From the IMG/VR virus record IMGVR_UViG_3300027711_000016, positions 1 through 26,579 of that record: 26,579 bases of DNA. One strand, 5' to 3'. The notes under the pieces are model-generated. The model ran no database searches. It was not told the origin of the DNA and saw only the letters and a list, made by a program, of their open reading frames with translations. This stretch comes from a virus (Duplodnaviria; Caudoviricetes). Both the position numbers and the translations under genes were made by a program. Shown here one piece after another: positions 750 through 23,819 of the stretch. Numbering within the stretch: position 1 is the first letter of the stretch; each line of letters begins with the position of its first letter.

Positions 750-773
750 TTTGTGCCTCCGTGTGGTGTGTGG

Positions 774-1011: not shown

Positions 1012-1063
1012 TTTGTGTCTCCGTGTGGTGTGTCAGCAGGGTCATCCCTGCTGCCTGTCTCCG

Positions 1064-1168: not shown

Positions 1169-1191
1169 AACGCTCACCTCCGTGTGTGTTG

Positions 1192-4316: not shown

Positions 4317-4342
4317 TGGTTGGTCTCCGTGTGGTTTTGGGT

Positions 4343-5911: not shown

Positions 5912-5949
5912 TTTAATCTCCGTGGTGTGTGGTGGTTGCTGCAGCTCGG

Positions 5950-8640: not shown

Positions 8641-8704
8641 TCTGACTTCCTTGCGGTTGGTTCGCGCATCGCGTACGATTGCGCACATATTAAAGCATCG
8701 TTTT

Positions 8705-9059: not shown

Positions 9060-9451
<392 letters not shown>

Positions 9452-9650: not shown

Positions 9651-9669
9651 CGGCGGGGCGTTGCGATCG

Positions 9670-10065
9670 TTAGAAGTAGCCTGCGGTCAGGTCGGTGTTT
9701 AGCGTTTGTTTGGACTCATCAATATCGGCACCGGCCTCCATGCGCTCGGCGTGGTCTTTGTATGCCGCGGCGCGCTGGTTGGCAGCGTTGAGCCTTGAGG
9801 TTAGTCTGTCGACCTCAACTTCGTTGAATGTCCGGTGCGCGTCGAGGATTCCCGAGACCGAATCGTGGGACGCAGCAACCCTCGAAATAACGTCAATCAA
9901 CTCGCGGATAACCCAATTGGAGCGCTCGGCGCTGGGTCCGGATAGGTGGCCGCCTGATTGCTCCAGGTCGCCGAGCTCATCTTGTGTGGCCCGCATGAGC
10001 GTCAACAGCCTATCCGCATGGTTGGTGGTAATTCCGGCGAGTTTGGTTAATTCTTCGTGGGTCAA
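9670..10065 (-). CDS. Hypothetical helical/coiled-coil protein, 131 aa
   Basis: TTG start with CACACGGAG RBS; followed by a terminator. Confidence 0.75.
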   Translation of the reverse strand: MTHEELTKLAGITTNHADRLLTLMRATQDELGDLEQSGGHLSGPSAERSNWVIRELIDVISRVAASHDSVSGILDAHRTFNEVEVDRLTSRLNAANQRAAAYKDHAERMEAGADIDESKQTLNTDLTAGYF

Positions 10066-10169
10066 TTTGGTTTCTCCGTGTGTAGGGCTGTGGATGACAA
10101 GGCTGGGACGTGCTACAACACTGGCATGAGGCAGCGAGGGGGTCTTTCAGGGTTCCCCCGCATCGCCGG

Positions 10170-10390: not shown

Positions 10391-10457
10391 GGTGTTCGTC
10401 TCCGTGTGCGCTGGGTTTGGTGTGATGCCCCGGTTTTGCCCCGGGGTTTGGTTGGTG

Positions 10458-10751
10458 TTATCCGAAATAGCCCTCGGCGAGCTCGCCCAGGCCCATGTTG
10501 TTCGCGATGAGGGTCAATCTTTCCTCGGGCGACAGGCCGGCGTGGTGCGCGCGGTGCGCGGTGTAGGCGCGCACGTAGTGGCCGCGCTCGCCCTCGGTGG
10601 CCTTGCGCCCGAGCGCCTCGTTGAGTGCGCAGTAGTCGCGGATCGTCGGGACCATCGGGGCATTGTCGAGCGAGCCGCTCCCGAGCAGCACCAGGAGTCC
10701 GACGGCGGCGTAGGCTTCGAGCTTGATTGTGTTTTTGGTTGCGTTCGTCAT
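10458..10751 (-). CDS. Hypothetical early protein, 97 aa
   Basis: Start moved to ATG 10751 (CACACGGAG RBS); first gene after the promoter at 10801-10829. Confidence 0.8.
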   Translation of the reverse strand: MTNATKNTIKLEAYAAVGLLVLLGSGSLDNAPMVPTIRDYCALNEALGRKATEGERGHYVRAYTAHRAHHAGLSPEERLTLIANNMGLGELAEGYFG

Positions 10752-10800
10752 TTTGTTTTCTCCGTGTGCGCGCTGGGCCATTCCCCGCTGAGATAATCGG

Positions 10801-10829
10801 AATATAGCTGCCAGCTATATTGCTGTCAA
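10801..10829 (-). promoter_or_regulatory. Sigma70-type promoter TTGACA-N17-TATATT containing a perfect 21-bp palindrome (putative operator)
   Basis: AATATAGCTG-C-CAGCTATATT at 10801-10821; -35 at 10829-10824. Confidence 0.8.
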
Positions 10830-10845
10830 CCCTATATCGGGACTA

Positions 10846-10875: not shown

Positions 10876-10906
10876 CCTCGCGTAGATACCCAAGGACGCG
10901 GGCGTT

Positions 10907-12920: not shown

Positions 12921-14199
12921 AAGAATAGACTCGATTGCGAATTATCTCTCAGGCCTCGGCGACCCTGAGCGCGATTCCGGCGCGGCGTCGCGCCCGTTTA
13001 TGGACCAGCGCCTGGCGCCCCACGAAATCGACGCGCTGTATCTTCAAAACGACATCGCGGCGATCATCGTCGACGAACTCGTCGAGGAGGCGTTGCGAAA
13101 CGGCTTCGAGATCAAAGACGCCGACAACGCCGACCCCGCGCTTGTGGACGATCTCTACCGGCTCGACGTCGACGGGAAGTTCACCGAGGCCGCGAAGACC
13201 GCCCGGCTCTACGGCGCGGCGTATCTGTGGGTTATCATCAACGACGGTCGCGAGCTCGCGGACGAGATCGGAGACGGCGAGGTCGTGCAGCTTATCCCCT
13301 ACGATCAGTGGGATATGCGCCCGCACGCTGTCCAGGGCGACAAGTCCCAAGAGGGTTACGGCGAGCCGGTCCTGTATCGCTCGCGTGACGGCGAGATCAT
13401 CCACGCGTCTAGGCTGCTAAAGTTCACCGGTGAGCGCCTGCCGCGCCGGTTGTCACAAGGCGGACAAGAGCCGTTTGATTCCGTGCTCCAACGCCCGTGG
13501 CCTAGCATCCGCAGGTTTACCGACGTCGAGAACGCGATCGCTCGTATTGTGCAGTCGTTTGAGGTGTCAAAGATCTCAATCGGCGGGCTTGCCCAGGCGA
13601 TGGCTGCCCAGGGCGGGGCGGAGCTCATCGAAGCGCGGATGAGGCTGATTGCGCGGTCTAGGTCCATCCTAAATATGATCCTCCTCGACGCCGACGCCGG
13701 CGAGCAGTACAGCCGCGATACCGCGTCGGTCGCGGGGCTTACCGAGATACGCATGGGGCTTGCTGAGTCGGTCGCGAAGTCGGCGCGTATGCCGATGACG
13801 ACGCTATTCGGGCAAGCGCCCTCGGGGCTAAACACCGACGGGAATTCCGGCATTCAAGCGTGGCATAAGCGCGTGCAGACCTACCGCGCCCAGGACCTCA
13901 CGCCGCAGATCGACCGGCTTGCGACGATTCTATTTCGCGGCAACGAACCCGCGTCGTGGGCGGTTATCTGGCCCGCGCTCGACGAGCCTAGCCAGCGCGA
14001 GACCGCCGAGCTCCGGAAGATGGTCGCCGAGACAGACGCGCTTTATTTGGACCGCGGCGTCCGCTCGCCCGATCAGGTCGCGCGCTCCAGGGACGGCGGC
14101 GCCGAGTGGTCGATGGAGACCGAGTCGCTCGACGATGACATTGATTTTTCAGCGTTCCAGGAGGCCCTGAGTGGCGTTCAACTTTCCGAAGACGATTGA
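12913..14199 (+). CDS. Portal protein (DUF1073-like)
   Basis: Position after terL; ARLYG, IHASRL, P.T.LFGQAPSGLN.DG motifs; AGGAG RBS before GTG. Confidence 0.9.
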   Translation: MDERIDSIANYLSGLGDPERDSGAASRPFMDQRLAPHEIDALYLQNDIAAIIVDELVEEALRNGFEIKDADNADPALVDDLYRLDVDGKFTEAAKTARLYGAAYLWVIINDGRELADEIGDGEVVQLIPYDQWDMRPHAVQGDKSQEGYGEPVLYRSRDGEIIHASRLLKFTGERLPRRLSQGGQEPFDSVLQRPWPSIRRFTDVENAIARIVQSFEVSKISIGGLAQAMAAQGGAELIEARMRLIARSRSILNMILLDADAGEQYSRDTASVAGLTEIRMGLAESVAKSARMPMTTLFGQAPSGLNTDGNSGIQAWHKRVQTYRAQDLTPQIDRLATILFRGNEPASWAVIWPALDEPSQRETAELRKMVAETDALYLDRGVRSPDQVARSRDGGAEWSMETESLDDDIDFSAFQEALSGVQLSEDD

Positions 14200-14944
14200 G
14201 CGGGATTATCAGCGTTATATCCTGGCGCTGGTTAAAACGATCCGCAGGCTCTACCTCGAAGCGCTCAAAGAATGGGCCCCGTTTAACCTCGACCAGCGCG
14301 CCGACGCCCCGGCAAACCCGGCGCGTATGGCGGCGATGGTGCGCACTGCGTTTTGGGGCACGGTCGACCTTGACGCGATGTTTCAAAAAGTGATCGGCGT
14401 CTATGACCGCTCGCAGAAATACGTCGATAACAACCTCGCGCGCACGTACCTGAGGGCGGCCGGTGTTCGACCCGTGCTCTCGCAGATCCCCAAGGCCCGC
14501 GCGCAGGTGTTCGCCAAGCGCAACGCTGACCTGATCGTCACGCTCTTGGAGGACCAGATCGCACGCATCGAGGCCGCGACGTTCGAGGCGGTGGCCGCCG
14601 GCGCCCGGCCTGAACAGCTCGCCAAGACGATCCGCGAGGAGACCGGCACGTCAGAATGGCACGCCCGTTTTTTGGCGCGCGACCAGACCGCGAAGTTGGT
14701 GAGTAACGCCAACGAGCAACGCCAGCGCGAGCTTGGCGCAACCCGCTATATCTGGCGCACTGTGCAGGATGAAAGGGTCAGGGATTCCCACGCCGCGCTT
14801 GAGGGCAGTATTCAACATTGGAGCGATCCGCCCGAACCCGGTCACCCCGGGGAAGACTATAACTGCAGATGCACAGCCGAGCCGTGGCTTGGCGACGTGC
14901 TTGAGGCGCTGAAAATTAACCCCGACGAGAGTCTTCCGCGATGA
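14171..14944 (+). CDS. Head morphogenesis / minor head protein (SPP1 gp7 / Mu gpF family)
   Basis: ARFLARDQT.K, Y.W.T..DERVRDSH, HPGEDYNCRC. Confidence 0.93.
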   Translation: MAFNFPKTIERDYQRYILALVKTIRRLYLEALKEWAPFNLDQRADAPANPARMAAMVRTAFWGTVDLDAMFQKVIGVYDRSQKYVDNNLARTYLRAAGVRPVLSQIPKARAQVFAKRNADLIVTLLEDQIARIEAATFEAVAAGARPEQLAKTIREETGTSEWHARFLARDQTAKLVSNANEQRQRELGATRYIWRTVQDERVRDSHAALEGSIQHWSDPPEPGHPGEDYNCRCTAEPWLGDVLEALKINPDESLPR

Positions 14945-15141
14945 TAAAATTCACGAAATTAGTAGTCGGTCGCAGGTTCGGCGAGGGCGTGGAACTCACG
15001 CAGGGCGGCGAGGTCGTCGGCATTGTGCGCATCGAGAATAACCCGGGCGGCGGCGGGGTGCGCGCGGTTATCTACGCGCCAAGAGAGACCAAGATTGAGC
15101 GAGTCGGTGCTCCTGGCGAGAGAGAGTTGACAACGAAATAA
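14941..15141 (+). CDS. csrA: CsrA/RsmA-like translational regulator (divergent, lacks the canonical C-terminal helix)
   Basis: LVVGRRFGE...VRAVIYAPRETKIER matches recalled E. coli CsrA LILTRRVGE...VRIGVNAPKEVSVHR with identical VR-AP-R44 spacing. ATGA-coupled to the upstream gene. Confidence 0.72.
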   Translation: MIKFTKLVVGRRFGEGVELTQGGEVVGIVRIENNPGGGGVRAVIYAPRETKIERVGAPGERELTTK

Positions 15142-15155
15142 AATTCATTTATCGT
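15127..15155 (+). promoter_or_regulatory. Putative promoter TTGACA-N17-TATCGT for the capsid/tail operon
   Basis: Perfect -35 and 17-bp spacer, 50 nt upstream of ATG 15205. Confidence 0.7.
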
Positions 15156-15170
15156 CTCATCCATTCACAC

Positions 15171-15200
15171 CATATCAAGGACACGATATGCTCAAGGAGA
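15171..15200 (+). promoter_or_regulatory. Dual CsrA-type site: hairpin with GGA in the loop plus a second CAAGGA in the RBS
   Basis: catatc-AAGGACAC-gatatg, then ctCAAGGAgaagttATG; the two sites are 17 nt apart. Confidence 0.55.
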
Positions 15201-15204
15201 AGTT

Positions 15205-16257
15205 ATGCCCAAGCCTATCGAATCCACACGCGTCTACCGCACCGATGCAGCAGACGCAGCCACGCCCACTGTCGCACGCTATGACCGCGCCGCGCTGAAA
15301 TCTTTCGTCAAAACCGACGAGGGATATTTGCTCGTCGAGGGTTACGCGTCTCGCCCCGGCATCCTGCAATATATCCAGCCCGACGGCACCGCTCGCCGGG
15401 AACTGGTCCCCGCAGACGAACTCGCCAAGACCGATTCGCTCGCGACGCTGGCCCGAAAACCGGTGACGCTCGATCACCCCGATGGTTTCGTGACGCCTGA
15501 GAACGTCGCGGAGCACCAGGTTGGCGATGTCTCGGAGTCGATCGAGATCGAGGAGTTAAACGGCTTCGTCAAGATCCGCATGGCCGTTAGAAAAGCCGAC
15601 GCCATTGAGGCGATCAACAACGGCGTGCGCGAGCTCTCGGTTGGCTACACCACCGAGATCGAGGAGACCTCGGGCGTTGACCCCGTGTTTGGGCGCTACG
15701 ACGCCATCCAGCGAAACCGCAGATATAACCACGTCGCGATCGTCCCGCGCGGGCGCGCCGGCAGCGAGGTCGGCCTCCGGGCCGATAGCGCAGACGAGAT
15801 CGCGGAGCTCCGAGCCGAGATCGCCGCGGTTCGACAGATGGTTGTGGAGGCCGCTAAGGCGCCCGAGCCCGACGCTGAGCCCGCCGATGAGCCGGTGGAG
15901 ATCGACCAGGGGGCGACGCCGACCGAGGAGGCCCCGAAGGCCGACGCCGAGGACAGGATGTCCTGGTTCGCCGCGCGGGTCGACGCGATGGAAGTCGCGA
16001 AGCTCGCAGGCGCAGAGCACGCCGCGACCGCTGATGTTGGGGATATCCAGCGCGCCGTGGTTCGAAAATTCTACGGCGACGTCGAGCGAAACGACGAGGC
16101 ATATATCGCCGCGGCCTACGCGCTCGCGAAGAAGTCGATCCGCGAGGATAGGCACAAAAAAACCTACACCGTTGTTGACGCACAGCCGGCCGCACCGGTC
16201 GAATCCGCCGAAGACATTTATCGGCGCAAACTCAAAGAAACCTTCAATCGAGGATAA
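15205..16257 (+). CDS. DUF2213 family putative prohead protease/scaffold
   Basis: T.EGYL...SRPGI..Y, KPVTLDHP, ELSVGY, NHVAIVPRGRAG; acidic helical C-terminal half. Confidence 0.9.
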   Translation: MPKPIESTRVYRTDAADAATPTVARYDRAALKSFVKTDEGYLLVEGYASRPGILQYIQPDGTARRELVPADELAKTDSLATLARKPVTLDHPDGFVTPENVAEHQVGDVSESIEIEELNGFVKIRMAVRKADAIEAINNGVRELSVGYTTEIEETSGVDPVFGRYDAIQRNRRYNHVAIVPRGRAGSEVGLRADSADEIAELRAEIAAVRQMVVEAAKAPEPDAEPADEPVEIDQGATPTEEAPKADAEDRMSWFAARVDAMEVAKLAGAEHAATADVGDIQRAVVRKFYGDVERNDEAYIAAAYALAKKSIREDRHKKTYTVVDAQPAAPVESAEDIYRRKLKETFNRG

Positions 16258-23652: not shown

Positions 23653-23819
23653 CCGAGAAAAGCGGGGTCGAGTGGCTCTACTGGCGCCTTTGGCTACAAA
23701 AGAACACCGACCCCGTGCACGTCCGCCGCACCTGGACGATCTACGACGTCCTAGACGCACACGAGGCACTCGACGTCGAGGCTGACATCGAGGAAACCAT
23801 AGCAAGGAAGCAACGGTGA
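23583..23819 (+). CDS. Frameshift extension of the tail chaperone (gpGT-like; not in the ORF track)
   Basis: ...KSGVEWLYWRLWLQKNTDPVHVRRTWTIYDVLDAHEALDVEADIEETIARKQR*; stop overlaps the tape-measure GTG. Confidence 0.78.
   Translation, partial: FSKTPRGRLVTSQSALGERVNRLTEKSGVEWLYWRLWLQKNTDPVHVRRTWTIYDVLDAHEALDVEADIEETIARKQR

Follow-up and report, generated by a model that had tools for sequence, protein, structure and literature searches.

The 66-aa protein encoded directly after the minor head gene of this phage genome is, as judged from structure prediction, a divergent CsrA/RsmA-fold protein without a C-terminal helix. What is new here is a helix-less variant of the known phage csrA gene, together with an unusually clean candidate target set. 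Tentatively, we favor a model in which this protein acts late, as a helix-less CsrA-type dimer that would dampen the translation of early genes and of the head protease through a motif of independent origin.

Genes for CsrA are widespread among phages. One survey counts csrA in 30 of 2,517 phages (PMC7366521), and another reports many further copies in GenBank and IMG/VR and proposes an anti-CRISPR role (PMC8450108). Phage homologues do exist, as the first-pass annotation stated. Some lie in head operons: csrA is found in that of CSP3 (PMC10269572) and between the portal and major capsid genes of Bcep22. In PTXU04 it follows the holin gene. Beyond such surveys, the literature found consists of a single knock-down phenotype and a single peptide from virions; a search of mostly open-access papers gave no account of a phage CsrA regulating phage mRNA. 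A further paper treats chromosomal csrA-tldR loci and has no bearing on the phage protein (PMC13418256). With a small protein and about a dozen defined candidate leaders, the model can be tested in E. coli and in vitro with no need of the host, and the protein also probes whether a helix-less CsrA core still reads ANGGA.

A csrA-like gene in the head operon

The window, by which we mean the whole 26,579-nt stretch of DNA analyzed, is a linear virus record of 26.6 kb (59% complete). Its leftward genes (1-10.8 kb) encode a helicase, RecE/YqaJ, an excisionase-like HTH protein, SSB, Sak4, primase and small unknown proteins, and its rightward genes the terminase, portal, minor head protein, protease, capsid, sheath, tube and tape measure. 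At positions 1-450, on the minus strand, a gene for a pentapeptide-repeat protein continues past the contig end. The capsid protein finds its nearest cellular matches in prophage-like contigs of two Lujinxingia vulgaris MAGs (54-56% identity); these contigs also have terminase, portal, protease and tail genes in common with the window, and a host of the Bradymonadales type, the order of Lujinxingia, is therefore likely. The window's helicase has no match in 48 genomes of that order, so the host assignment draws on structural genes only. Host-type csrA is common there, scoring above cut-off in 43 of the 48 genomes. Two Lujinxingia prophage-like contigs (L124:1501-1683 and L125:1498-1686) carry a second, short csrA of 53-54 bits, which ends just past the R44 region and lies directly upstream of excisionase-like and integrase-like ORFs.

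The csrA-like ATG overlaps the TGA of the minor head gene and no GGA-type SD lies upstream of it, an arrangement that suggests translational coupling of the two genes, as the first-pass annotation had proposed. Because its codon changes in relatives are mostly synonymous and a 58%-identical homologue exists, the ORF is, by these sequence comparisons, a real gene. Contigs of four other runs (X2, X3, X5 and X6) align to it, in three cases over its full length, and across them 19 of 25 variable sites fall at third codon positions and none at second positions. Synonymous changes account for 14/16 altered codons in X2, 13/15 in X5, 10/12 in X3 and 4/4 in X6, where random change would give 25%; since X2, X3 and X5 have most of their changes in common, they are not independent and represent roughly one lineage plus X6. 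This codon pattern shows the gene to be under purifying selection.

Four database homologues delimit the family, three of them near-identical (94-98%) and one 58% identical. Residues L7, R11, R12, G14, E15, A46, P47 and R54 are kept at both distances, and R11, R12 and R54, the equivalents of R6, R7 and R44, do not vary in any of the four members, the 58%-identical one included. The V30-R31 equivalents are lost in homologue P0069, and the E39 equivalent is D in relatives. Two long matches from the 1.84-billion search (P0070 and P0071) were dropped as homologues, being repeat proteins. The search for further members brought little: PF02599 was found in none of 47 records related by their minor head or protease, a set made up of L003 and 46 of the 67 minor-head loci and consisting mostly of fragments. 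In L003, whose protease is 66% identical, no gene separates the minor head and protease genes, and the record contains no early arm. A tblastn search of 50,697 phage records returned 23 chance-level rows (best E 5). With the family profile, viral contigs yielded no further loci and 301 genomes of the likely host phylum seven weak matches, six of them in frames of 235-662 aa.

A promoter match that faces the protease gene begins in the last codons of the csrA-like ORF, which encode LTT; since the 58%-identical homologue retains LTT as well, the tail of the protein may be constrained by the overlapping promoter.

Fold and dimer prediction

At the sequence level, the kinship with CsrA is faint. 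PF02599 gives the protein 14 bits (E 0.05), under the curated cut-off of 27, and its relatives 12.4-15.4 bits; CsrA is nevertheless the sole Pfam family listed for the protein and for each relative. PHROGs and PDB sequence searches returned no match. An HMM built from 11 reference CsrAs, with the window protein left out, ranks the ORF first among 11,108 six-frame pieces drawn from 15 records (E 0.11), and the two best ESM Atlas clusters consist of viral CsrA (0.88), which gives no more than a lead.

The structural comparisons point the same way. The monomer model, predicted from the single sequence, reaches a pLDDT of 72.5, and a model from a 4-row alignment is no better. Foldseek places CsrA, RsmA or RsmE in the top 11 PDB rows (E 0.45-1.6, probability up to 0.87, none at E<=0.001), and seven of the top eight viral rows are named CsrA or carbon storage regulator (probability 0.77-0.99); VIA-align ranks CsrA second with a Z of 3.3, level with unrelated folds. 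The predicted model contains the β1-β5 core, and the signature described at first pass is present, with L7, R11R12, G14E15, V40R41, A46P47, E49 and R54 aligning to L2, R6R7, G9E10, V30R31, A36P37, E39 and R44 of E. coli CsrA. The equivalents of T5 and Q29 are glycine. As that annotation had also proposed, the C-terminal helix is replaced: in both monomer models no helix H1 follows β5 past R54, where a Gly/Pro tail stands instead.

The homodimer prediction, one of the checks suggested at first pass, gives 0.63 where the best of three controls gives 0.00; contacts agree to at least 97% between runs and the pLDDT is 79-80. The mark applied is reached by 20 of 30 solved homo-pairs and by 1 of 23 single chains. 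Predicted contacts join residues 6-10 with 42-45' and 16-20 with 50-55', which are CsrA's swapped strands (β1-β4' and β2-β5'), and the pass may reflect likeness to solved CsrA dimers. The proposed CsrA homology and dimer formation are supported by fold and complex prediction, and the homology falls short at the Pfam threshold. With CsrA/RsmA/RsmE (PF02599; E. coli CsrA, P. protegens RsmE) the protein shares the L2, R6, R7, G9, E10, A36, P37 and R44 equivalents and, by prediction, the five-strand core and the swapped homodimer; it differs in its sub-threshold score, in insertions in two loops, and in a tail, conserved within its own small family, in place of the helix.

That replacement bears on function. 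In RsmA the looped-out base sits in a pocket formed by the C-terminal helix, and activity is lost when a truncation reaches into that helix, whereas RsmN binds RNA without a C-terminal helix (both PMC3791407). Other phage proteins offer a partial parallel: Bcep22 gp54 with its Lessievirus homologues and PTXU04 gp28 are likewise small divergent CsrAs in a late block, whose Pfam match also ends at position 44-45, but the window protein forms a distinct sequence family.

Candidate sites at gene starts

All ribosome-site motifs listed in the first-pass annotation are in place: ACACGGAGG ahead of the minus-strand starts at 749 and 1168, CAAGGAAGU at 8653 for the primase, CAAGGACG at 10891 for the terminase small subunit, two CAAGGA at 15176 and 15193 for the protease, and CAAGGAAG at 23803 for the tape measure. 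The pattern even exceeds that list, with six additional early CACGGAG sites at 1025, 4331, 5924, 10080, 10406 and 10766 (Table 1).

Table 1 Genes, candidate CsrA-type sites and promoter matches in the window
Feature	Position	Strand	Remark
CACGGA(GG) at SD of 100-aa gene (start 749)	758..763	-	
CACGGA(G) at SD of 69-aa gene (start 1011)	1020..1025	-	upstream CAGGGAUG within GC hairpin
ACACGGAGGU ahead of putative 26-aa ORF (start 1168)	1179..1184	-	sole early CACGGA with 3' GU
CACGGA(G) at SD of RecE/YqaJ exonuclease (start 4316)	4326..4331	-	
CACGGA(G) at SD of Sak4-like annealase (start 5911)	5919..5924	-	
CAAGGA(AGU) at SD of primase (start 8640)	8648..8653	-	
CACGGA(G) at SD of early 131-aa gene (start 10065)	10075..10080	-	
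CACGGA(G) at SD of early 62-aa gene (start 10390)	10401..10406	-	
CACGGA(G) at SD of early 97-aa gene (start 10751)	10761..10766	-	
sigma70-like leftward (early) promoter match	10801..10829	-	two operator-like palindromes overlap
CAAGGA at SD of terminase small subunit	10891..10896	+	
Minor head / Mu F-like head morphogenesis gene	14171..14944	+	stop overlaps csrA-like start
csrA-like gene, 66 aa	14941..15141	+	predicted five-strand strand-swapped homodimer, without C-terminal helix
sigma70-like promoter match TTGACA-17-TATCGT	15127..15155	+	consensus match only; faces protease gene
Tandem CAAGGA, head-protease leader	15176..15198	+	17 nt apart, second overlaps SD
Head maturation protease (DUF2213) gene	15205..16257	+	
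CAAGGA at SD of tape measure	23803..23808	+	

The motif is commoner in the early arm, and the description 'phage-wide' overstated its reach. Among 16 early starts, 14 have a GGA and nine of these CANGGA (eight as CACGGAG); among 21 late starts the corresponding numbers are 13 and three (9/14 against 3/13, Fisher p=0.054). Against shuffles that preserved the A/C-rich composition, the early enrichment is clear: hand-picked early GGA starts carry CANGGA in 9 of 13 cases where shuffled leaders average 2.5-3.0 (P 0.00015-0.00035), the hand-picked set having omitted the coupled helicase start, which would make it 9/14, and having taken in start 1168 on account of its motif. As in CsrA targets, ANGGA overlies the SD; among GGA starts this holds for 10 of the 14 early ones and for 3 of the 13 late ones.

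In detail, the sites match known CsrA ligands in part. RsmE binds the hcnA site as ACGGAN with the C looped out (PMC3791407), and the SELEX consensus for CsrA is RUACARGGAUGU (PMC7652899). The closing G of CANGGANG occurs at three of nine early sites and a 3' GU at two of nine. In none of the 13 leaders folded does such a GGA lie in the loop of a stable hairpin with closing AC/GU pairs, and the early SDs are mostly unpaired. A second upstream GGA is found, as raw counts, in 5/9 early and 3/3 late CANGGA leaders, most clearly at the protease leader. The tandem CAAGGA there is the best candidate for a two-site target, its spacing falling within the 10-63 nt over which CsrA can bridge two sites (PMC7652899). 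In runs X2, X5 and X6 no differences are listed for 15161-15204, and the short X3 contig differs five times in 15161-15209.

The motif is not simply the ordinary SD of the host, since it is rare in the likely host order: genomes of 3.5-12 Mb hold 0-12 copies each of the exact pattern CACACGGAG-N4-9-ATG, and two genomes of that order, sampled over 187 kb, have CANGGA at 7 of their 140 GGA starts. A prophage-bearing contig without csrA has it at 6 of 65.

Its origin may lie elsewhere. The similarity among early leaders runs on via the spacer into the first codons, several leaders are preceded by GC hairpins, and in one relative's contig position 10408 is joined to 10775, deleting the cassette between the leaders at 10406 and 10766. 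The early motif thus likely arose as a shared translation-initiation and recombination cassette and not as a purpose-built operator. Such arrangements have precedents in the start-associated sequences of cluster K mycobacteriophages, which overlap the SDs of many non-structural genes and are conserved outside anti-SD pairing (PMC3203893), and in the PeSL cassettes of T4-type phages, where genes are gained and lost by way of repeated leaders (PMC2839356). The window's repeat has another sequence, is shorter and looser, carries no demonstrated promoter role, and shares its genome with a gene for a candidate binding protein. Low-depth variant contigs are each missing one early gene, that for 131 aa (9658-10100) or that for 97 aa (10408-10775), and one of these two deletions has its joint at the repeated leaders.

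Competing readings and neighboring elements

The first-pass annotation had envisaged a regulon acting as a lytic timer, with CANGGA enrichment that should track the csrA gene across phages. Equal motif frequency in relatives without the gene was to count against it, and this is in part what the comparison gives: seven annotated csrA+ reference phages (Bcep22, PTXU04, F116, VvAW1, PSTCR8lys, D279 and phi297) have CANGGA at 28 of 359 GGA starts and four records without csrA at 16 of 210 (p=1.0). The window's 11/32 is the highest share among the whole records compared (p=7e-5 against the csrA+ references). Bcep22- and PTXU04-type phages, unlike the window, lack the enrichment at gene starts, with 5/70 in PTXU04, and the two csrA+ Lujinxingia prophage contigs have 2/22 and 0/7. 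Gene starts for these comparisons and for the shuffles came from a heuristic gene finder, whose mis-calls in GC-rich DNA (seen in Bcep22 and in the late arm of the window) dilute real enrichment. In Bcep22 (W01), the same gene finder shows four genes preceded by a repeated ribosome site, CAAGGAGA(G/A)AG(G), that contains two GGA-like cores.

In turn, two records resemble the window's early leaders where csrA is undetected. G021, a 38-kb record with direct terminal repeats whose genome is organized like the window's, has primase, portal, protease, capsid and sheath in common with the window and carries ACAGGGAG ahead of most of its small early genes (CANGGA 10/45 against 11/32, p=0.30); neither Pfam nor an HMM including the window protein detected a csrA in it. 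In G390, which is 70% complete and in which no csrA was detected, the A/C-rich ACGGAG leaders closely resemble those of the window. There (L229-L230, 22737-29747), about ten co-oriented small genes each follow an A/C-rich stretch with ACGGAG or GCGGAG, in many cases led by ACCACAC. For both records the best capsid matches are below 40% identity, so no host can be assigned. PF02599 occurs in one of 35 motif-picked records, a 343-kb provirus record. Enrichment and phage csrA accordingly did not co-occur in this sample of distant phages, in which a very divergent csrA could escape detection. On these sequence comparisons, motif and gene are not convincingly linked, the comparative evidence cuts against a dedicated regulon, and a dedicated phage-wide control circuit is unproven.

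The data are most compatible with the late-brake model outlined above. The csrA-like protein would be made late, with the head proteins, as the apparent coupling of its start to the minor head gene suggests. Its retained arginines could then read single-stranded ANGGA at ribosome-binding sites, for which the unpaired ACACGGAG SDs of early mRNAs would be accessible late targets and the two CAAGGA sites of the protease leader, directly downstream of the csrA-like gene, a further one. The outcome would be a modest late brake on early and replication protein synthesis plus local tuning of head genes, and not a timer around which the whole genome was built. Several points speak against this late brake: the protein falls below the Pfam cut-off, has no PHROG or PDB sequence match and scores no better with CsrA than with unrelated folds in VIA-align; the helix that RsmA needs for activity is absent here and the T5/Q29 equivalents are glycine; few early sites have the closing G or the 3' GU, and none lies in a stable hairpin loop; and the likely host's own csrA should bind strong sites and hinder early expression.

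A stronger version, in which a domesticated helix-less CsrA serves as an early-to-late switch, shutting off together the CACACGGAG sites that nearly all early and replication genes have in common while the CAAGGA sites tune protease, terminase small subunit and tape-measure output, we consider rather doubtful; if true, it would amount to a translation-level lytic timer derived from a host global regulator. Did the early sites co-evolve with the protein, being kept for a late CsrA-like shut-off as an RNA-level switch? The window's record share of CANGGA, its rarity at starts of the likely host order, and major head, sheath and tube SDs that lack ANGGA would all fit. Yet the motif is unenriched in the seven csrA+ phages and in both csrA+ Lujinxingia contigs, G021 and G390 have similar early SDs, and N is C in eight of nine early sites though CsrA tolerates variation there, which leaves such a dedicated regulon unlikely.

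About as unlikely, in our estimate, is that the protein acts on the host, repressing host GGA mRNAs or titrating or poisoning host CsrA and its sRNAs, with the phage motifs incidental. Likely hosts do carry csrA, the presence of csrA in phage and host is correlated and host manipulation including CRISPR repression has been proposed (PMC8450108), and PTXU04 forms small plaques when its homologue is knocked down (PMC11879866), despite the unenriched motif of that phage. However, the head-operon position points to late expression, when host reprogramming would matter less, and in sequence the protein has diverged well beyond most of the phage CsrAs that resemble host CsrA. The loss of the helix, the head-operon position in the window and in Bcep22, and the single CsrA peptide recovered from JC1 virions (PMC9144972) could also indicate a protein that has kept the fold, lost GGA binding and become a head-assembly or virion component; with R11, R12 and R54 invariant across the family and RNA binding by RsmN in the absence of the helix, this seems improbable.

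AGGGAG pairs with the anti-SD through G-U wobble, and the G021 leaders are therefore explained without CsrA. Hence, although ACA-N-GGAG recurs at early genes with N=C in the window and N=G in G021, and the likely host order has csrA, it is very improbable that the early leaders are host CsrA sites that sense host state, with the phage copy reinforcing or overriding the signal late, all the more as no host is assignable to G021 or G390.

Two further elements lie in the early arm. An 18-nt palindrome (TATAG/TGCTG..A.CTATAT type) occurs in three copies, at 1080-1097, 10803-10820 and 10818-10835, which overlap two near-perfect leftward sigma70 promoter matches (1091-1064 matches at 12/12 positions) and are probable repressor operators. 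Just upstream of the HTH and primase genes, positions 9060-9451 hold a 96-nt inverted repeat (86% complementary) around 200 nt of AT-rich spacer containing a long palindromic (TA)n tract, a structure that looks like a replication origin or resolution-type site.
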